A DNA stretch of 64,000 nt from Gammaproteobacteria bacterium (lineage in GTDB: Bacteria > Pseudomonadota > Gammaproteobacteria > CAJXQU01): the NCBI GenBank assembly GCA_965238175.1, contig CBDEGZ010000003.1:1152001-1216000 (forward strand), in the 5' to 3' direction. Below, in pieces: positions 1,091-43,490 of this stretch. The first letter of the stretch is position 1; each line of letters begins with the position of its first letter. The notes under the pieces are model-generated. The model did no database searches and was not told where the DNA came from. It saw only the letters and a program-made list of their open reading frames with translations. The translations under genes were made by a program, and so were the position numbers.

Positions 1091-1665
1091 TTATCAACTC
1101 AGTAGATCAATCAAATCAACAGGGTTTTAGCCTGGTCGAATTGGTTGTTGTCATCGGGATGGCCGGTGTGATCTTTGCCTCGTTAAGTACTATCGTTGGT
1201 GAAATGTTCCAAACTCAAGAACGTATAGAAAATAATAGTGATATTAATCAGGAAGCTGCTTTTGTGACCGAACGTCTTGTTAATTTGATTGGGCATAGTC
1301 GTACATCTACCATACAGAACGACCAAACAAATCATGTACATGTTGATTTGGAAACGGATCCACAACAGGATATGAATAAGGATGGAACTTTTGATCCGGT
1401 TGATGAAATTGAATTTCATTGGGATCCTTCGTTGCTCGAAATTAGAACGCAAAGATTATCTTTTGATGTAACCGGTGATGGTGGAATAGACAGTAATGAT
1501 AGGTTCAGGTATTTACTTACGAGAAACATCAGTGCATTTACGATCAGTCGTTCAAGACCTACCGGTGGGCGCTTTGATTTAATTCGTCTTGAAATGACGT
1601 TTACCGATACGAGTGGTCAGACGTTGGATATCGATACATCTGTGCGGGTTGGTGGGCAATTATGA
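1087..1665 (+). CDS. Prepilin-type minor pilin (PilW/GspJ-like)
   Basis: QQGFSLVELVV motif; third position in the minor pilin series. Confidence 0.8.
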   Translation: MIINSVDQSNQQGFSLVELVVVIGMAGVIFASLSTIVGEMFQTQERIENNSDINQEAAFVTERLVNLIGHSRTSTIQNDQTNHVHVDLETDPQQDMNKDGTFDPVDEIEFHWDPSLLEIRTQRLSFDVTGDGGIDSNDRFRYLLTRNISAFTISRSRPTGGRFDLIRLEMTFTDTSGQTLDIDTSVRVGGQL

Positions 1666-2669
1666 AGCCTCATAACAAGTCAATTCCAAAGTCCTTTCCT
1701 GCATCATTTCACCGGTCAATTTACGGAACAACTCCTGAACAGAATCAGCAAGGGTTTATTTTGATTACTGTCCTGCTTTTAATCAGCTTGATCGCCTCTG
1801 TTGCTTATTTATCAAGTACCCATAGTGTTTTTAATGCCTCTCAAGCAGAGTCGAAAATTGATTCTCAGAAGATGCGTTATGCGGCGGAAACGGGTTTAGT
1901 CTTTGCGACGGCTGAGCTAGCAAAAGATCTGGATTGTACTGGATATACGATCACGCCGAATGGAACCTTTAATGGTTACCGTTACAGGGCAAGTTTATCG
2001 GCGACTTCTGGTTCTCCTGTCACGGTTAATGTTTCAATGGATCTTGGATCGGGTAATTCGCGTTCTTTTAGTCGGGAGGTTACTGTAACAAAAAATAATG
2101 AGACAGAAGTGGACTTGGAAGAAGATAGTTATTCTAATCGATCGGATGACAATCGAAACTATGGGGAAGATCAGGAACTCCACGTGAGAGCTCGGTTAGA
2201 TCGAATAACGTTCTTAAAATTCGATATGGGAAAAATCAATATCGATCCAGCAGCGATTATCGGGGCTGAGCTTAAGCTTTATCAAAAGAGTTCACCAGAG
2301 GCGAGTACGTTCAATATCCGTGTTTACAGAATCACAAAAAGATGGAAGGAAAGGGAAGTTACATATGACGATCGTTATAACAATAGAGCTTGGACCAAAA
2401 ATATGCTTGGTGTGATTACCGATGTTGATCCAACAGCAATAGATTCGGTTGAGATTGATAAAAATGTTGTGGATTGGAAGATATGGGATGTGACGTCTCT
2501 GGTGATAGATTGGTTAGATGGAACGTCTACTGATCGTGGTATGGCATTATCAAATACTGGAATCCGCACTAATAGTATTGAGTTCCTTAGCCGAGAGTCT
2601 TCAGATATTGCCAAACGGCCTAAGTTAGTTATAACTCATCAATGCGAGTGTGGGACAGCCGGTTGCTAG
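1662..2669 (+). CDS. PilX/GspK-like minor pilin with C-terminal DNRLRE/CBM96-like domain
   Basis: QQGFILITVLL lacks Glu+5, as in PilX/GspK; C-terminal EDSY..NYG..L.V..FLKFD..AELKLY..W.E..VT..W..WDVT.LV..W..RPKLVI pattern. Confidence 0.75.
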   Translation: MKPHNKSIPKSFPASFHRSIYGTTPEQNQQGFILITVLLLISLIASVAYLSSTHSVFNASQAESKIDSQKMRYAAETGLVFATAELAKDLDCTGYTITPNGTFNGYRYRASLSATSGSPVTVNVSMDLGSGNSRSFSREVTVTKNNETEVDLEEDSYSNRSDDNRNYGEDQELHVRARLDRITFLKFDMGKINIDPAAIIGAELKLYQKSSPEASTFNIRVYRITKRWKEREVTYDDRYNNRAWTKNMLGVITDVDPTAIDSVEIDKNVVDWKIWDVTSLVIDWLDGTSTDRGMALSNTGIRTNSIEFLSRESSDIAKRPKLVITHQCECGTAGC

Positions 2670-2710
2670 TTCTGAAACTGATCTTTGGTTTACCCAGACT
2701 AAAATTTAAC

Positions 2711-2811
2711 TAACCTGATGTGATGGTCTCCTCCCCCTTACGGCATGTAAGTGTCATGATTGAACCGTCATCAACACAATCAAAAGAGGAGAAGACCATC
2801 AAATCAGGTTA
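2711..2811 (+). mobile_element. Miniature IS110(IS1111)-derived element / left-end remnant forming a 19-bp terminal hairpin
   Basis: 2716-2798 is about 90% identical to the left end of the IS110 copies; taacctgatgtgatggtct / agaccatcaaatcaggtta pair at 18 of 19 positions. Confidence 0.85.
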
Positions 2812-2871
2812 AATAAAGAATTTGGTGTTTTTGCCGATAAAGTTATCAGATAAAAATATTTGGGATAGGAC

Positions 2872-3980
2872 ATGCTAGGGATAACCCGTAAGGGTCCAAT
2901 TGGATTAGATTTTGGTTCTGATCATTTGAAAATGGTACAGGCAGATTTTGTAAAAGGAAGTCCGGTGATCCGTTCTGCTATTATTTTGCCTTACCCCACG
3001 AACAAAAAAGAGCTATTTGAATCTCCTACAGATTTAAAAAAAATGGTTCGTAAAGCGCGCAGTATAGGTGGGTTTCAAGGTGCTCGTACAGTGGTGACAA
3101 TGCCTCCTGAAAAACTTCAATTTGTTTCGCTCGAATATAAATGTATGCCGTCAAAAGATCCTGACGAAGCGGTGATTGAGGCGATAAGAGAACGATTTGG
3201 TGATCAGATAAAAAGTTCAGTGATCGATTTTTACATATTCGCCCTGAACATAAAGATCAAATTGATCGCAGTGCACTCGCTGCGGTCGCACAAAAAGAAT
3301 CTGTCATTTCTTTCCTGGAGTCTATACGCAAGAGTGGATTAGAAGTTGATCGACTTGAAATTGGTCCGGTTGCGATTAATAGATTGATGGGCGCAATTAA
3401 TCCTAATGAGCATGACAAAATTAATCTAGTGATCAATTTCGGTCTATATAAATCTTATGCGACCGTTTTATGGGGCAGGCGCTTGTTGCTAGATCGTGAA
3501 TTATCATTTGGCTGTGCAACAGGTGCTACCGTTCTGTCTGAGGCACTGGAAGTATCAAAGCAAGAAGCAACAGAATTATTGGCTCGACATGGTATTAAGG
3601 TGGCAAATAAAGTCATCGTAGGTTCAGATTACGAAGAAGTAAGTATCGCGGAAACGGTGGCTGATATTTTAAAACCTGTACTTCAAGATTTTGCTCATGA
3701 GATTAAACGGCTGATGTTATATGTGGCCTCGAGAACGCGTGGACGTACAGTTAATGAATCGTATATGTTTGGTAATGTTCTCGAATGGTCTGGTGTAGAT
3801 AGAATTCTTTCTGAAATGACAGGAATAACGTTTAAAACAACGCAACCTTTCTACGGGTTTGCTACTTCTAAGCAGGCCGCGAAAATAAAGGATGTGTCTG
3901 AGTTACGTGGGATTGCTGTCGCGACCGGGCTTGCTTTGTTAGGGCTGGAAAACAACCAGAGGGCAAGCGGTGATGCATGA
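2872..3980 (+). pseudogene. pilM: PilM/MshI-like pilus assembly protein, split by a single-base frameshift (or sequencing error)
   Basis: N-terminus PIGLDFGSDHLKMVQ and C-terminus ..AVATGLAL; adding one T to the T5 run at 3228-3232 joins ORFs 2872-3342 and 3384-3980. Confidence 0.75.
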
Positions 3981-18718: not shown

Positions 18719-18813
18719 TAACTTAACCTGATGTGATGGTCTCCTCCCCCTAACGGCATCTAGGTGCCATGATTGAACTGACATACACACAATCAAAAGA
18801 GGAGAAGACCAAA

Positions 18814-19827
18814 ATGAAGACTACAACAATCGGGTTAGACATAGCAAAAAACGTATTTCATGCTGTCTGCTGTAATCAACAAGGGCGTATAATCAAAAAG
18901 AAAATGTTAAAGCGAGCGCAGGTACTCTCCTTTTTTCAATCTCAACCTCCTTGTTTAGTCGCAATAGAATCTTGTGCAACGTCACAGTATTGGGCCCGAG
19001 CGATACAACAACAGGGACATCAGGTGAAATTACTACCACCTCAGCATGTTAACGCATTTCTAATCGGCAATAAGAATGATTATAACGATGCCTTGGCCAT
19101 CGCCGTTGCTGCGAAACAACCTCATTTAAAAAGTGTGGGCATTAAATCAGTTGAGCAACAAGACAACCAGGCACAACATAAAGCAAGAGACTTAGCGGTC
19201 AGACAAAGAACCGCATTATGTAACCAAATGAGAGCGCTTGTTGCAGAATATGGCATTAGCCTTCGTCCCGGCCTAAATACCCTACGTCAATCTATCCCGT
19301 TGCTATTAAGTGATGAGAACGAACGGTTGTCCGTTACTTTCAAAAGGATACTGCGCCAGCTAAAGGAACAATGGCAATCACTTGATGCCTGTATTGCGAC
19401 ATTTGACCAATTGATCATTCAATCGGCAAAAAACAATGCGATTTGCCAACGCTTACAAACTATTCCAGGGTTTGGGCCGATGGTCTCGAGCGCGTATTTT
19501 AATGAAGTGGGAAACGGCGCTCATTATCACAAAGGGCGCGATGTGTCCGCCTCATTAGGACTTGTTCCACGACAGTACAGTAGTGGTGGTAAAGAGGTGC
19601 TACTGGGGATCAGTAAACGCGGCAATAAATACCTTCGTTGTTTGTTAATTCTAGGCGCGAAGGCCGTGGTATCAAGAGCCAAAACGAAAGGCGATAAACT
19701 GAGTCAATGGATTAATCGTTTAGTTGAGACGCGGGGGCATAATCGAGCGTGTGTGGCGTATGCCAACAAAATGGCAAGAATGGCCTGGGCTATAACGGTT
19801 TCTGGTGATGACTACTCACCGGCCTAA
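18814..19827 (+). CDS. IS110 DEDD recombinase/transposase
   Basis: IGLDIAK, AIES, KNDYNDA, TIPGFG, GLVPRQYSSGG, ISKRGNKYLR; start placed after RBS gaggag. Confidence 0.96.
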   Translation: MKTTTIGLDIAKNVFHAVCCNQQGRIIKKKMLKRAQVLSFFQSQPPCLVAIESCATSQYWARAIQQQGHQVKLLPPQHVNAFLIGNKNDYNDALAIAVAAKQPHLKSVGIKSVEQQDNQAQHKARDLAVRQRTALCNQMRALVAEYGISLRPGLNTLRQSIPLLLSDENERLSVTFKRILRQLKEQWQSLDACIATFDQLIIQSAKNNAICQRLQTIPGFGPMVSSAYFNEVGNGAHYHKGRDVSASLGLVPRQYSSGGKEVLLGISKRGNKYLRCLLILGAKAVVSRAKTKGDKLSQWINRLVETRGHNRACVAYANKMARMAWAITVSGDDYSPA

Positions 19828-19869
19828 ATAGAGAGAACAAATCATTTCAACGAATTGCGAAGGTAAAAC

Positions 19870-20045
19870 TAAAGATGGCATAACAGGTCAAACCAGCCTA
19901 TTGAAAACCTGTCGAGCTCAGGGGTAACTAATACCGATAACCTGATAAGGAAAATAGGCGCGTAATACATCCAGGTCAGAAGTTGAAAACTTCATTGAAG
20001 GCCGTATATATGACAGCAATCCTGTCCCTGTTATCTGAATGTTTT
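19870..20045 (+). ncRNA. Putative bridge/seekRNA in the IS110 3' non-coding region (also in copies 2 and 3)
   Basis: Stem gcctatt/aataggc encloses CGAGCTCAG and ATAACCTGA (target matches); ACATC and TATATATGA match the circle junction; RNA ends approximate. Confidence 0.75.
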
Positions 20046-20083
20046 ATCTTGCAATACGGGAGGAGACCATATATGAGATCGGT

Positions 20084-20983
20084 TTAAGCCACGGTTGCTA
20101 ATGCCCGTTTTAAGTAATTAAATTCATCGCCAGACAAGTTCAAAGACGGCTTATTCTCTTTCAGACAATAAGCGATCAATCCACCGATAAGATTAAGCAT
20201 AAAACCATGTACAGAGCGGTGTCTGGAATGTTCTATCTGAGTAATGTTCTTCAACTGGTCATTAATGGTTTCAATAATAAAACGTCTGCTCAGCATGGCT
20301 CTGTCCCAGAGCGATGTAGCTTTTGCCTTCATGTTTTTTCGAACATTTGTCACCAACTCCACGCCTTTATCAAACAATTCGCTCGATAAGGCTTGGCTGA
20401 TATAGCCCTTATCCCCGTAAAGTTTGCCACTCATCGCCTTGCACAGCTCGGGAACAGGCTGACGGTCATCGATATTTCCCGGGGTGATTTTGGCTGCCAG
20501 GATATCCCCCTGATGATTGGTGATAAGGTGTAACTTGAAACCATAAAACCAACCCATTGTGCCTCGACCTCGCTGGGCGATGTCTTTGAAAACACGGTGG
20601 CGTGGAATACGGAGGTTGTGGCACACTTTTAAGGCGGTTGAATCAACAAACGCAACACCTGTGGGTTTCCCTTTAAGATAAGAAAAGTAGCTACATAAAG
20701 GAACGAGCACTGTCGGCATCACCTCCAGAAACCGCGTGTAGCTTAGCATCTGTGGAAAATCCTCGGCATAGAATTGAGCGATAAACCCTTTGTAGTAGTT
20801 CTTGAAATCGCGATGGTTGGAGTGATGAAACAGGATGATGATAGTCATGATTTCGCTGGCTTGCATTCGCCCAACTCGACGGCGTTTGCGTTGCCCATCG
20901 GTCAGTAATTGTTGTTCCCACAACGGTATGAAGTGCTGACAGAAGTCATCGACATCACAAAAGATTTCAACTAGTTTATCCAT
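20084..20983 (-). CDS. IS982 family transposase
   Basis: IFCDVDDFC, FVDST, GWFYGFKLHL, GDKGYIS, IETINDQLKN..QIEHSRHRS. Confidence 0.95.
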   Translation of the reverse strand: MDKLVEIFCDVDDFCQHFIPLWEQQLLTDGQRKRRRVGRMQASEIMTIIILFHHSNHRDFKNYYKGFIAQFYAEDFPQMLSYTRFLEVMPTVLVPLCSYFSYLKGKPTGVAFVDSTALKVCHNLRIPRHRVFKDIAQRGRGTMGWFYGFKLHLITNHQGDILAAKITPGNIDDRQPVPELCKAMSGKLYGDKGYISQALSSELFDKGVELVTNVRKNMKAKATSLWDRAMLSRRFIIETINDQLKNITQIEHSRHRSVHGFMLNLIGGLIAYCLKENKPSLNLSGDEFNYLKRALATVA

Positions 20984-21106
20984 TGGCTTGTTCTCCTTTT
21001 TTTTCAATTGTTTGGTCACAATTGATCTGATCGGGGGACAAGCCGTTAGTTCATTTCCTTAAGCCGAGTTGGGGTTAACTTAATAGAAATTGATAAAATC
21101 ACAGGC

Positions 21107-21142
21107 AAAAAAAAGCCTGGCAATAAATGCCAGGCTTTTTTA
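21107..21142. terminator. Intrinsic terminator of the cold-shock gene (bidirectional)
   Basis: aaaaaaagcctggca-ataaa-tgccaggcttttt. Confidence 0.85.
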
Positions 21143-21159
21143 TGTAATTGAAGGAAGTT

Positions 21160-21363
21160 TTATACTTTCGTCACATTACTAGCTTGTGGACCTTTGGGAC
21201 CATCTTCAACGTCGTAAGAAACTTCGTCGCCTTCACCAAGGCTTTTGAAACCGTCGCCTTGAATTGCAGAAAAATGTACGAATACATCTGTGCTGCCATC
21301 AGCTGGTGAAATAAAGCCGAAGCCTTTTGAATCGTTGAACCATTTAACACTGCCAGTAGCCAT
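21160..21363 (-). CDS. Cold-shock protein (CspA family)
   Basis: [29 protein letters not shown]. Confidence 0.96.
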
Positions 21364-21685
21364 GTAGAATTACCTCTTAAATAAACAAAAAATAAATCAA
21401 TTGCGGTTTAGCGAGGTAATACACAGGAGATGCCTTCCTGGAAACTTCTGAAACCTATTAAAACGTGCAATCAAACTTGTATAGCAGTCAATATCACTAT
21501 TTATAATACAAAATATAAACCACTAACACATATATTGTAGACCTATCTGGCCCAAGATCAAACATTTAGTACGACTATTTACTTTTCTTATAGGTAAAGT
21601 TTGTGAACAATTCAACATAAATTGCCACCAATAATCATAAATTTACCTCATTGTAGGTATATGGCTTGGCTATTTGGAGTGTGTA

Positions 21686-26287: not shown

Positions 26288-27632
26288 TATATGGTCTCCT
26301 CCCGTATTGCAAGATAAAACATTCAGATAACAGGGACAGGATTGCTGTCATATATACGGCCTTCAATGAAGTTTTCAACTTCTGACCTGGATGTATTACG
26401 CGCCTATTTTCCTTATCAGGTTATCGGTATTAGTTACCCCTGAGCTCGACAGGTTTTCAATAGGCTGGTTTGACCTGTTATGCCATCTTTAGTTTTACCT
26501 TCGCAATTCGTTGAAATGATTTGTTCTCTCTATTTAGGCCGGTGAGTAGTCATCACCAGAAACCGTTATAGCCCAGGCCATTCTTGCCATTTTGTTGGCA
26601 TACGCCACACACGCTCGATTATGCCCCCGCGTCTCAACTAAACGATTAATCCATTGACTCAGTTTATCGCCTTTCGTTTTGGCTCTTGATACCACGGCCT
26701 TCGCGCCTAGAATTAACAAACAACGAAGGTATTTATTGCCGCGTTTACTGATCCCCAGTAGCACCTCTTTACCACCACTACTGTACTGTCGTGGAACAAG
26801 TCCTAATGAGGCGGACACATCGCGCCCTTTGTGATAATGAGCGCCGTTTCCCACTTCATTAAAATACGCGCTCGAGACCATCGGCCCAAACCCTGGAATA
26901 GTTTGTAAGCGTTGGCAAATCGCATTGTTTTTTGCCGATTGAATGATCAATTGGTCAAATGTCGCAATACAGGCATCAAGTGATTGCCATTGTTCCTTTA
27001 GCTGGCGCAGTATCCTTTTGAAAGTAACGGACAACCGTTCGTTCTCATCACTTAATAGCAACGGGATAGATTGACGTAGGGTATTTAGGCCGGGACGAAG
27101 GCTAATGCCATATTCTGCAACAAGCGCTCTCATTTGGTTACATAATGCGGTTCTTTGTCTGACCGCTAAGTCTCTTGCTTTATGTTGTGCCTGGTTGTCT
27201 TGTTGCTCAACTGATTTAATGCCCACACTTTTTAAATGAGGTTGTTTCGCAGCAACGGCGATGGCCAAGGCATCGTTATAATCATTCTTATTGCCGATTA
27301 GAAATGCGTTAACATGCTGAGGTGGTAGTAATTTCACCTGATGTCCCTGTTGTTGTATCGCTCGGGCCCAATACTGTGACGTTGCACAAGATTCTATTGC
27401 GACTAAACAAGGAGGTTGAGATTGAAAAAAGGAGAGTACCTGCGCTCGCTTTAACATTTTCTTTTTGATTATACGCCCTTGTTGATTACAGCAGACAGCA
27501 TGAAATACGTTTTTTGCTATGTCTAACCCGATTGTTGTAGTCTTCATTTTGGTCTTCTCCTCTTTTGATTGTGTGTATGTCAGTTCAATCATGGCACCTA
27601 GATGCCGTTAGGGGGAGGAGACCATCACATCA
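26288..27632 (-). mobile_element. IS110 (IS1111) element, copy 2
   Basis: Same 1345-bp element; reconstructed target TAACC|TGAACTCAGGATAAG. Confidence 0.95.
26534..27547 (-). CDS. IS110 transposase
   Basis: Protein identical to copy 1. Confidence 0.96.
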   Translation of the reverse strand: MKTTTIGLDIAKNVFHAVCCNQQGRIIKKKMLKRAQVLSFFQSQPPCLVAIESCATSQYWARAIQQQGHQVKLLPPQHVNAFLIGNKNDYNDALAIAVAAKQPHLKSVGIKSVEQQDNQAQHKARDLAVRQRTALCNQMRALVAEYGISLRPGLNTLRQSIPLLLSDENERLSVTFKRILRQLKEQWQSLDACIATFDQLIIQSAKNNAICQRLQTIPGFGPMVSSAYFNEVGNGAHYHKGRDVSASLGLVPRQYSSGGKEVLLGISKRGNKYLRCLLILGAKAVVSRAKTKGDKLSQWINRLVETRGHNRACVAYANKMARMAWAITVSGDDYSPA

Positions 27633-42145: not shown

Positions 42146-43490
42146 TGATGTGATGGTCTCCTCCCCCTAACGGCATCTAGGTGCCATGATTGAACTGACA
42201 TACACACAATCAAAAGAGGAGAAGACCAAAATGAAGACTACAACAATCGGGTTAGACATAGCAAAAAACGTATTTCATGCTGTCTGCTGTAATCAACAAG
42301 GGCGTATAATCAAAAAGAAAATGTTAAAGCGAGCGCAGGTACTCTCCTTTTTTCAATCTCAACCTCCTTGTTTAGTCGCAATAGAATCTTGTGCAACGTC
42401 ACAGTATTGGGCCCGAGCGATACAACAACAGGGACATCAGGTGAAATTACTACCACCTCAGCATGTTAACGCATTTCTAATCGGCAATAAGAATGATTAT
42501 AACGATGCCTTGGCCATCGCCGTTGCTGCGAAACAACCTCATTTAAAAAGTGTGGGCATTAAATCAGTTGAGCAACAAGACAACCAGGCACAACATAAAG
42601 CAAGAGACTTAGCGGTCAGACAAAGAACCGCATTATGTAACCAAATGAGAGCGCTTGTTGCAGAATATGGCATTAGCCTTCGTCCCGGCCTAAATACCCT
42701 ACGTCAATCTATCCCGTTGCTATTAAGTGATGAGAACGAACGGTTGTCCGTTACTTTCAAAAGGATACTGCGCCAGCTAAAGGAACAATGGCAATCACTT
42801 GATGCCTGTATTGCGACATTTGACCAATTGATCATTCAATCGGCAAAAAACAATGCGATTTGCCAACGCTTACAAACTATTCCAGGGTTTGGGCCGATGG
42901 TCTCGAGCGCGTATTTTAATGAAGTGGGAAACGGCGCTCATTATCACAAAGGGCGCGATGTGTCCGCCTCATTAGGACTTGTTCCACGACAGTACAGTAG
43001 TGGTGGTAAAGAGGTGCTACTGGGGATCAGTAAACGCGGCAATAAATACCTTCGTTGTTTGTTAATTCTAGGCGCGAAGGCCGTGGTATCAAGAGCCAAA
43101 ACGAAAGGCGATAAACTGAGTCAATGGATTAATCGTTTAGTTGAGACGCGGGGGCATAATCGAGCGTGTGTGGCGTATGCCAACAAAATGGCAAGAATGG
43201 CCTGGGCTATAACGGTTTCTGGTGATGACTACTCACCGGCCTAAATAGAGAGAACAAATCATTTCAACGAATTGCGAAGGTAAAACTAAAGATGGCATAA
43301 CAGGTCAAACCAGCCTATTGAAAACCTGTCGAGCTCAGGGGTAACTAATACCGATAACCTGATAAGGAAAATAGGCGCGTAATACATCCAGGTCAGAAGT
43401 TGAAAACTTCATTGAAGGCCGTATATATGACAGCAATCCTGTCCCTGTTATCTGAATGTTTTATCTTGCAATACGGGAGGAGACCATATA
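42146..43490 (+). mobile_element. IS110 (IS1111) element, copy 3
   Basis: Same 1345-bp element; reconstructed target AAACC|TGAACTCGGGATAAG. Confidence 0.95.
42231..43244 (+). CDS. IS110 transposase
   Basis: Protein identical to copy 1. Confidence 0.96.
   Translation: MKTTTIGLDIAKNVFHAVCCNQQGRIIKKKMLKRAQVLSFFQSQPPCLVAIESCATSQYWARAIQQQGHQVKLLPPQHVNAFLIGNKNDYNDALAIAVAAKQPHLKSVGIKSVEQQDNQAQHKARDLAVRQRTALCNQMRALVAEYGISLRPGLNTLRQSIPLLLSDENERLSVTFKRILRQLKEQWQSLDACIATFDQLIIQSAKNNAICQRLQTIPGFGPMVSSAYFNEVGNGAHYHKGRDVSASLGLVPRQYSSGGKEVLLGISKRGNKYLRCLLILGAKAVVSRAKTKGDKLSQWINRLVETRGHNRACVAYANKMARMAWAITVSGDDYSPA

Follow-up and report, generated by a model that had tools for sequence, protein, structure and literature searches.

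A hairpin element upstream of pilM that is probably a fold-back relic of an IS1111-group insertion

The subject of this analysis is a 101-nt hairpin unit at positions 2711-2811 of a 64,000-nt stretch of DNA (the window) from Gammaproteobacteria bacterium (GenBank assembly GCA_965238175.1, contig CBDEGZ010000003.1, positions 1,152,001 to 1,216,000 of the forward strand; C3 below). The best explanation for its sequence, and one that we consider probable, is that it is a non-autonomous fold-back relic of an IS1111-group insertion sequence (IS), formed in place at a palindromic target, most likely by template switching. The product consists of the left end of the IS up to a ribosome-site region that resembles the right inverted repeat; after this come the left terminus in inverted form and the target half as its mirror image. 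The same precise product is present in nine places, in five genomes and one metagenome contig, several unrelated marine bacteria among them, and it involves at least three IS lineages.

A BLAST search of the full IS against the genome aligns IS positions 1-83 with C3:1154716-1154798 (window 2716-2798) at 90.4% identity (E 1e-25). Direct comparison of the element with the resident IS over these 83 positions reveals exactly 8 substitutions, at 2739, 2747, 2750, 2754, 2766, 2768, 2772, and 2773. These values bear out a preliminary description made from the letters alone, which had reported about 83 nt of an IS110 left end with about 8 substitutions, and they confirm its proposal on the origin of the unit, namely the left end of an element of the IS1111 group (IS110 family). 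All eight substitutions are interior (2739-2773), and the left repeat, the ribosome-site region and the stem carry none. The substituted positions are the same positions at which related IS lineages differ among themselves, and the substitutions probably mark another parental lineage rather than age. The match to the IS stops at ...GACCA, that is, at ...GAGGAGAAGACCA (2786-2798). Beyond this point, the element reads TCAAATCAGGTTA, whereas the intact IS continues with AAATGAAG, the start of the transposase gene. In order, the unit reads TAACC-TGATGTG-ATGGTCTCCTCC...GAGGAGAAGACCA-TCAAATCA-GGTTA, and its parts are the following.

2711 to 2715, forward strand: TAACC, the left half of the IS target; host (target) DNA that forms the outermost left arm and also precedes 24 of the 25 full IS copies.
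2716 to 2798, forward strand: IS positions 1-83 by alignment to the IS, with 8 of the 83 positions different.
2716 to 2722, forward strand: the left extension TGATGTG, whose first three bases (TGA) are the shared core; assigned by the extension rule of PMC11187229 (here and below, cited for the portion of its text that was available).
2723 to 2734, forward strand: the left subterminal inverted repeat (IRL), ATGGTCTCCTCC.
2786 to 2798, forward strand: the transposase ribosome-site region GAGGAGAAGACCA, a mimic of the right inverted repeat at the end of the 5' untranslated portion.
2799 to 2806, forward strand: TCAAATCA, which differs at one base (2802) from TCACATCA, the left extension and core in reverse complement.
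2807 to 2811, forward strand: GGTTA, the mirror of TAACC and probably the native right half of a palindromic target; a matching motif stands at the orthologous position in congener G006, and related blocks are found in G002, G001, and G003.
2711 to 2811, no strand: the whole fold-back unit; in fold predictions, an outer stem pairs 2711-2735 with 2787-2811 and encloses a 51-nt interior with two small inner stems.

The terminal arms, TAACCTGATGTGATGGTCT and AGACCATCAAATCAGGTTA, are 19 nt long with one mismatch, as had been described, and a repeat search extends a looser pairing to 35 nt at 83% complementarity. Folded as RNA, the unit reaches -40.6 kcal/mol (z = -6.3), and none of 200 shuffled sequences is as stable; folded as DNA, it reaches -22.5 kcal/mol (z = -6.8). 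The strong hairpin previously noted between the upstream gene and pilM is thus supported by both calculations. In the intact IS, DNA folding pairs the left inverted repeat with the transposase ribosome-site region, which constitutes a natural stem. The right arm TCAAATCAGGTTA reads as the inverted left terminus plus the left target half with one mismatch, and not as the right end of the IS (...CCATATA). The right end, the transposase gene and the guide region are all absent, and only IS positions 1-83 are present. By these features, the unit classifies as a derivative of the IS1111 group and not as a member.

IS4321 and IS5075 are named examples of the IS1111 group. Full-length IS copies of the parental type are located at three places in the window.

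18729 to 20073, forward strand: full-length parent-type IS, 1345 bp, with a gene for a 338-aa DEDD/Transposase_20 transposase.
26288 to 27632, reverse strand: second full copy, identical to the first.
42146 to 43490, forward strand: third full copy, identical to the first.

BLAST detects 25 full-length copies in the genome (3.35 Mb in 3 contigs, with a chromosome contig of 40% G+C); 23 are identical to the query and 2 match at 99.93%. The 338-aa transposase carries the domains DEDD_Tnp_IS110 (PF01548, E 3e-16) and Transposase_20 (PF02371, E 6e-20). The inverted repeats are subterminal and 12 bp long (ATGGTCTCCTCC on the left and GGAGGAGACCAT on the right), and they are flanked by extensions of 7 nt (TGATGTG, left) and 3 nt (ATA, right). 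The transposase gene is followed by a 246-nt non-coding region (19828-20073) that holds TAACCTGA, followed directly by TAAGG, and ATATATGA. The first of these equals the left target half plus the core, and the second equals the right end plus the core. This region probably encodes a guide RNA (seekRNA) in which TAACCTGA and ATATATGA would be the guide segments. When the right end is joined to the left end, the sequence TTGCAA-17 nt-TATGAT is created, which by eye is a good predicted promoter across the circle junction, in agreement with descriptions of the family. Subterminal repeats of 11-13 bp, a 7-bp left and a 3-bp right extension, and a long downstream non-coding region are the criteria given for the IS1111 group (PMC11187229). 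The parent agrees with them on every point tested, and its sequence identifies it as an ordinary IS1111-group member of the IS110 family.

Relatives of the transposase were found in marine Gammaproteobacteria, and a search of a plasmid collection returned only distant IS110 matches, in enterobacteria. All eight related ISs whose right end falls within the fetched stretch terminate in ...GGAGGAGACCATATA (CCATATA). The internal look-alike of the right end at the ribosome-site region reads GACCA-AAA-TGA, compared with GACCAT-ATA-TGA at the true right end; in the IS of genome G408, the internal version is GACCA-ATA-TGA.

The flanks of the full copies define the target of this IS. The left flank is TAACC in 24 of the 25 copies and AAACC in the remaining one, and most right flanks are TGA-ACTCGGGATAAG or close variants. 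A pattern scan for unoccupied sites of the type TAACCTGA-ACTCGGGATAAG found 7 matches in the genome, 4 clean and 3 more degenerate. The clean empty sites (C3:123565, 1506524, 2510108, and 2865109) read TAACCTGA-A[C/T]TC[A/G]GGATAAG. Empty sites carry TAACCTGAACTCGGGATAAG, and the degenerate site at 2509894 carries TAACCTAA. Related ISs in other genera share the start TGATGTGATGG but follow other left flanks (GCCAGATC, CCTAACT, GGTGGGA, and TATATA). Since such different sequences precede TGATGTG, TAACC must be target DNA, and TGA is the core common to target and IS. The earlier placement of the element at the IS target motif was therefore essentially right, given the empty sites of this type in the genome. 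Its TAACC flank fits the motif, although the boundary required mending, in that TAACC belongs to the target and the IS proper begins with TGATGTG at 2716.

Eight of the IS copies share a right flank of about 40 nt (GGGATAAGAATG.CC.TAAAAACATTAAA...), for example at C3:5398, 123763, 1051548, 1391374, 1788706, 2300479, 3000707, and 3331944. An unoccupied copy of this flank is present at C3:2509906, and another flank is common to three other IS copies. These shared flanks indicate that the IS target sits at the edge of other repeated units. The IS copy at 18729-20073 abuts a DDE_Tnp_1_3 transposase gene (20084-21019, reverse strand).

Three origins of the right arm make different predictions. If the true right end is followed by native flank, the arm should read GACCATATA-T.A-AATCAGG, and the observed sequence requires the loss of 4 nt. 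If the internal false right end is used, the prediction is GACCAAAA-TGA-AATCAGG, which requires the loss of 3 nt and one substitution. If the arm is an inverted left terminus, it should read GACCA-TCACATCA-GGTTA, and one substitution is sufficient. The third reading is settled by sister elements in other genomes, which read GACCA-TCACATCA-GGTTA.

Eight further elements with a left end followed by an inverted left end were identified, four in G408, one each in G445, G734, and G731, and one on a metagenome contig (L156), together representing at least three IS lineages. When the genomes with the five closest relatives of the IS were searched by pattern, 8 matches appeared in 4 of the 5 genomes; 5 of the matches are full ISs and 3 are short elements. 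The three short elements are all in G408 (Paraglaciecola algarum G1-23, locus L073), where they occupy different loci (L158, L159, and L160). Each is identical to that genome's own full IS up to GGGAGAAGACC (GACCA) and then reads ATCACATCAGGTTA, in one case with an extra ATCAC. The remaining five are the following.

L177, in G408: fourth copy, slightly decayed.
L157, in G445: fold-back element.
L178, in G734: fold-back element.
L179, in G731: fold-back element of another IS lineage.
L156, metagenome contig: fold-back element with the target half GTAGCC mirrored as GGCTAC.

The sequence TCACATCA is exact in 6 of the 8 sister elements, and the other two have one or two changes; some of the eight show decay. 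The nine elements are alike in that their symmetry ends at the target half and that GGAGAAGACCA, the internal version, is retained at the junction (in L179 and L156, the variant of their own lineage). Retention of this internal junction is what fold-back priming predicts. In a 301-genome sample of the family of G408, an 18-mer from the left end occurs at 24 sites in 14 genomes, and 4 of these sites, in 2 genomes, are fold-backs by exact pattern.

The sister elements also bear on the proposal, made in the preliminary description, that an aberrant excision at the internal inverted repeat left the unit behind as a scar. In such a reaction, the transposase would take the internal look-alike (GAGGAGAAGACCA-AAA-TGA) as a false right end, and either the rest of the IS would be excised or an 87-bp mini-circle would form and then insert. 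The internal site does mimic the right end, and ISPpu9 forms alternative circles from internal look-alike ends (PMC12288879, likewise cited here and below for its available portion). However, this route predicts ...GACCAAAA-TGA followed by the right flank, whereas the window reads GACCA-TCAAATCA-GGTTA. The internal look-alike of G408, GACCA-ATA-TGA, is an almost perfect false right end and yet is not found in the products in G408, which read GACCA-TCACATCA-GGTTA and not GACCAATA-TGA. With the predicted junction seen in none of the nine elements, and with an inverted left terminus in its place in the eight sisters, the proposal fails for the class, and we regard it as very improbable for this copy.

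A simple internal deletion between the direct repeats GAGGAGAAGACCA and GGAGGAGACCA of a single IS would instead keep the true right end and lose four bases of its TATA run. The two repeats are indeed direct and 11-13 nt long. Moreover, TCAAAT or AAATCAGG occurs in congeners G002 and G006 as well as in the right arm, such that TCAAATCAGGTTAA could be wholly native. The deletion requires an extra loss of 4 nt, however, and the allele ...GACCATATA-TCAAATCAGG is absent from the locus, while fresh copies elsewhere have exact TCACATCA. The TCACA of the sister elements does not occur on that strand of any full IS. A perfect palindrome elsewhere in the genome is also left unexplained, and overall a deletion of this kind seems quite unlikely.

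This palindrome, a second fold-back in the genome at C3:1393263-1393348 (L027, about 1501-1586), is 86 nt long and runs from TAACC-TGATGTG to ...GGCATCTAGGTGCC and then through the exact complement to GGTTA. It is built from the initial ~36 nt of the left end together with their complement, and its DNA fold reaches -47 kcal/mol. It pivots on another small stem within the left end (GGCA/TGCC). Over 40 nt, one arm matches the resident IS at 100%, and the other is 95% identical and differs only in the loop, which indicates a recent origin. In G002 and G006, the two flanks are on separate contigs, and the site is therefore a rearrangement junction rather than a simple empty site. Older relatives of the left end are present as a truncated copy at C3:2357911-2358383 (79%) and a remnant at C3:2897431-2898300 (84%). 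The latter remnant ends near the ribosome-site region, and what follows it on the minus strand resembles, by eye, the beginning of another IS110-like gene.

Template switching corrects quasipalindromes when a nascent strand primes on an imperfect hairpin and perfects it, and long inverted repeats and palindromes are unstable in bacteria. The fold-back relic could have been produced by a process of this type. A full-length IS, a slightly diverged relative of the 25 resident copies, would have inserted by RNA guidance into a near-palindromic site between the CBM96 gene and the promoter region of pilM. During replication, a nascent 3' end that had just copied ...GGAGAAGACCA would fold back onto the left repeat, and the folded strand would copy TCACATCA-GGTTA from its own 5' part. 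It could then re-anneal on the native right half of the palindromic target, which would skip the remaining 1.26 kb, including the transposase gene, the guide-RNA region and the right end. Alternatively, and with an equivalent result, a second copy may first insert in the opposite direction into the other half of the palindrome. This would create a 2.7-kb perfect palindrome, and its collapse between the 11-nt direct repeats GGAGAAGACCA and GGAGGAGACCA would yield the same product. A fold-back mechanism would explain the exact junction, the stop of the symmetry, the retained internal repeat, the use of a second stem at C3:1393263 and the recurrence across lineages.

Evidence on the original state of the site comes from related genomes. 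Six other species of the genus were compared, and the locus was found in five (G001, G002, G003, G004, and G006) and not in G005. The element is absent from the locus in all five, each a different species, and the gene order there is the same. In G002, the closest species (83% identity), the two genes are 48 nt apart, compared with 141 nt between the matching points here. The left end of the IS, with up to 2 mismatches permitted, is absent in G002, G004, G005, and G006, and G003 has one at a contig end. G006, which is free of the IS, natively carries AAATCAGGTTAA at the orthologous spot, in overlap with the upstream gene's stop codon. G002 has TCAAATTTAGATCTAA, and G001 and G003 have TTCTAGTCAA, at an equal distance from a CCGATAA block that is invariant. 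These motifs show that the genus natively possesses the right half of the motif here. The site resembles a near-cognate target that is nearly palindromic (TAACC-T[G/C]A-AA-TCA-GGTTAA). An empty site unrelated to the target motif, which the preliminary description had named as evidence that would count against it, was not encountered in this comparison, since G006 has AAATCAGGTTAA at the orthologous spot.

Several observations weigh against formation in place by fold-back. The four copies in G408 are of similar length and lie at different loci, compared with one full IS found by pattern in that genome, and this is a classic signature of a transposable element of the miniature inverted-repeat kind (MITE). 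One alignment with G002 makes the whole 101 nt, TAACC and GGTTA included, look inserted, as would fit a mobile unit. Immediately outside TAACC...GGTTA, 4 of the 5 TAACC-type elements compared have direct repeats of 2-3 nt (AC/AC, AGA/AGA, TG/TG, and AC/AC in L158, L159, L160, and L157); the window element, compared over 2705-2817, has none. Such repeats may stem from the composition of the target, where TAnn precedes TAACC on both sides, or from the mode of formation. When one G408 locus was compared with 40 genomes of its genus, the flanks matched, and the intergenic DNA was too diverged for a clear palindromic empty target to be seen. The eight substitutions fall where IS lineages vary anyway and permit no age estimate. 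The right arm in the window is one base off the ideal sequence, and for this copy alone a right end plus native flank with a loss of 4 nt is possible.

Some of these points favor a true mobile MITE, with two left-end-like termini, that was moved in trans by an IS1111-type transposase and inserted as a unit. The architecture is conserved in at least three IS lineages, and an IS110-family MITE is on record, namely MITEPpu9 (PMC12288879). Nevertheless, we consider a mobile MITE unlikely, and the copy number in this genome is one reason. BLAST with a word size of 7 detected no second full-length copy of the element in the genome. The only partial IS matches are the window element, the one palindrome, and left-end remnants at two further loci, with no solo right ends. 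An element-specific 25-mer had no exact match in a genome-contig collection, and a 113-nt query against 400 genomes of the class gave only matches of about 20-30 nt to the left terminus. The preliminary description had proposed that same-length copies would support a MITE and a single copy a scar. A single copy is what this genome contains, but the four copies of similar length in G408 make the outcome of that comparison mixed. Contig C1 of the assembly (10,967 bp) has 56% G+C, compared with 40% for the chromosome and 44% for C2, and may be a foreign plasmid or a contaminant.

The structure of the unit also argues against mobility. IS110-type excision is a recombination between two cores in direct order that gives a circle (PMC11187229, PMC12288879, and the available portion of PMC13626964). 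The unit has two left junctions in inverted order and no right end, and consequently a recombinase acting by this mechanism could at most invert it, not excise it. Related ISs end in ...GGAGGAGACCATATA, and the guide segment ATATATGA matches that end, which the unit lacks. MITEPpu9, in contrast, keeps ends of both the A' type and the B' type (PMC12288879). The native presence of the right-arm motif in G006 is a further point against insertion as a unit. Like a MITE, the element is small, has no transposase gene and possesses terminal inverted repeats; it lacks the several copies and the transposase-usable termini matching both ends. The observations that bear on movement are the absence from five congeners, which are different species, and flanking 2-3-nt repeats that are irregular. 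Thus the MITE reading of the preliminary description gains from the copies in G408 and loses from the single copy here and the lack of a right end for seekRNA/bridge excision. The element is probably not mobile by this canonical route.

A collapsed or misjoined full IS could in principle mimic the element. The outer 28-30 nt are common to the 25 IS copies, and the contigs of public sequencing runs break there. Logan contigs were compared for two public runs from one sample, which is probably the source of the assembly and thus does not give evidence independent of it. In each run, one contig covers 2709-3300; it crosses the interior that is specific to the element, enters pilM and has no base differences. 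The depth of this contig is 2.9 and 7.21 in the two runs, compared with 2.7 and 10.9 for the flanks. A separate contig of the IS type, with the 8 differences, has depths of 37.8 and 139.2 and is 13-19 times deeper. Two other runs with the same species label (X4 and X5) had no contig on this stretch, which is no proof of absence. Collapse of a full IS in the assembly, which had been raised in advance as a possible refutation, is excluded as far as contigs can tell, and an artefact of any such kind is exceedingly improbable.

The element is located 41 nt past the stop codon of the upstream gene and 60 nt ahead of the pilM start at 2872. Its surroundings are the following.

1662 to 2669, forward strand: upstream gene for a CBM96-domain protein (domain search), the last of a run that starts with GspH/N-methyl pilin-like genes (102-1665).
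2834 to 2840, forward strand: CCGATAA, invariant in all five aligned congener sequences and located between the element and the pilM start (alignment).
2872 to 3980, forward strand: pilM, present in the assembly as two open reading frames (ORFs), 2872-3342 and 3384-3980.

Three genes upstream of the CBM96 gene have N-terminal methylation motifs, and one of these is GspH-like. The upstream gene had been called pilX-like, but a CBM96-domain protein that follows three N-methyl pilin-like genes is not recognizably PilX. On the 3' side of pilM, the order is pilN, pilO, an unnamed ORF and a secretin gene (pilQ). The pilM ORF at 3384-3980 matches the C-terminal half of PilM_2, and the ORF at 2872-3342 has no Pfam match. 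In both public runs, the contigs have a one-base length difference from the assembly inside the first pilM ORF. With this difference, the two ORFs would share a frame, and the split may therefore be an assembly error rather than a pseudogene.

A strong hairpin at this location raises the question of whether it is adaptive, either as a terminator, attenuator or mRNA stabilizer between the minor-pilin run and pilMNOPQ, or as a segment inverted by a recombinase. The strength of the fold and the position between the two genes fit such a role. The stem is free of the 8 differences from the resident IS, and the right arm has one mismatch. In addition, Moraxella has a DNA segment that is inverted by Piv, which is related to these transposases (PMC11187229). 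However, the stem is followed by AAATAAAGAA, which contains no T-run as an intrinsic terminator would, and a scan of 2500-3000 found no terminator-like and no promoter-like sites. IS lineages in any case conserve those stem positions that are unchanged, and five congeners with the same gene order do not have the element. The contigs show one orientation only, with the limit that contigs drop rare variants. An adaptive hairpin is therefore very unlikely.

The Rfam search gave no match at the element. A cspA thermoregulator RNA at 21108-21493 (reverse strand; RF01766, 107 bits) is the only Rfam match in the window at gathering score.

CCGATAA may be a regulatory or promoter-proximal site of pilM. 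The element is most likely a tolerated DNA or RNA hairpin that has no present function. This rating reflects the missing T-run, the null result of the scan, the untouched CCGATAA and pilM start downstream, and the fact that congeners manage without the element. Its effect on pilus expression is probably neutral, with the control of pilM left intact, although the hairpin may modestly affect read-through or the stability of the upstream transcript at its 3' end. It is a long shot that the resident seekRNA-recombinase still recognizes the two inverted left junctions and flips the ~50-90-nt interior, or uses the junctions as decoy or secondary sites. If this were true, the genome would have a recombinase-driven switch between two type IV pilus gene sets.

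For this genome, the element is of little importance and represents one more relic in an IS-rich chromosome. Its recurrence is of wider interest, given that IS1111/IS110 elements are under development as programmable recombinases, while the ways in which they fail in nature have been little mapped. The fold-back products suggest that insertion into palindromic targets, such as those resembling repetitive extragenic palindromic (REP) elements, carries a built-in route to self-destruction, with the stem between left repeat and ribosome-site region as a hot spot of collapse. Fold-backs of this kind could be mistaken for MITEs or REP elements during annotation, and they leave strong intergenic hairpins. 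No description of an IS1111 derivative with a left end and an inverted left end was found in the literature searched; supplements, ISfinder and subscription journals were outside this search, so that one may be in print. The recurrent fold-back class is possibly a small new point on the decay of IS1111-type elements at palindromic targets.

Among known systems, the IS1111 group itself (IS1111 and ISEc11, with seekRNA/bridge RNA) is the closest to the parent. The likeness extends to the DEDD transposase, the 12-bp subterminal repeats, the 7- and 3-nt extensions, the downstream non-coding region, the sequence-specific target with a shared core and the predicted promoter at the circle junction. 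The window element differs in retaining positions 1-83 only, without transposase, guide region or right end. MITEPpu9, the ssr9 module of ISPpu9 in Pseudomonas putida KT2440, is likewise a short, non-autonomous IS110 derivative at a palindromic (REP) target (PMC12288879). In it, look-alikes of both ends (A' and B') stand in direct order; it forms circles and encodes a small RNA (PMC12288879). The fold-back class, in contrast, has the left end on both sides in inverted order, no right-type box and no expected circle.

QMITE2 of Coxiella burnetii is a small palindrome-bearing repeat found at IS1111 insertion sites in intergenic and 3' regions (PMC5896051). It serves as the target of IS1111 in Coxiella (PMC5896051; reviewed in PMC10969869, cited for its available portion) and is not an IS1111 derivative; it has direct repeats of 7-11 nt and occurs in roughly 50-78 copies (PMC5896051). 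Invertible segments of the Piv type resemble the window element in having two inverted junctions that look like recombination sites and in forming a short segment beside type IV pilus genes (PMC11187229). Those segments have Piv sites of their own, whereas here the right junction is mutated and a single orientation is seen in the contigs. Template switching at quasipalindromes is the same mechanism as that proposed for the fold-back relic. In the present case, the switch would also delete 1.26 kb through the return to a palindromic target half, and the event recurs at the same two stems of one IS family.

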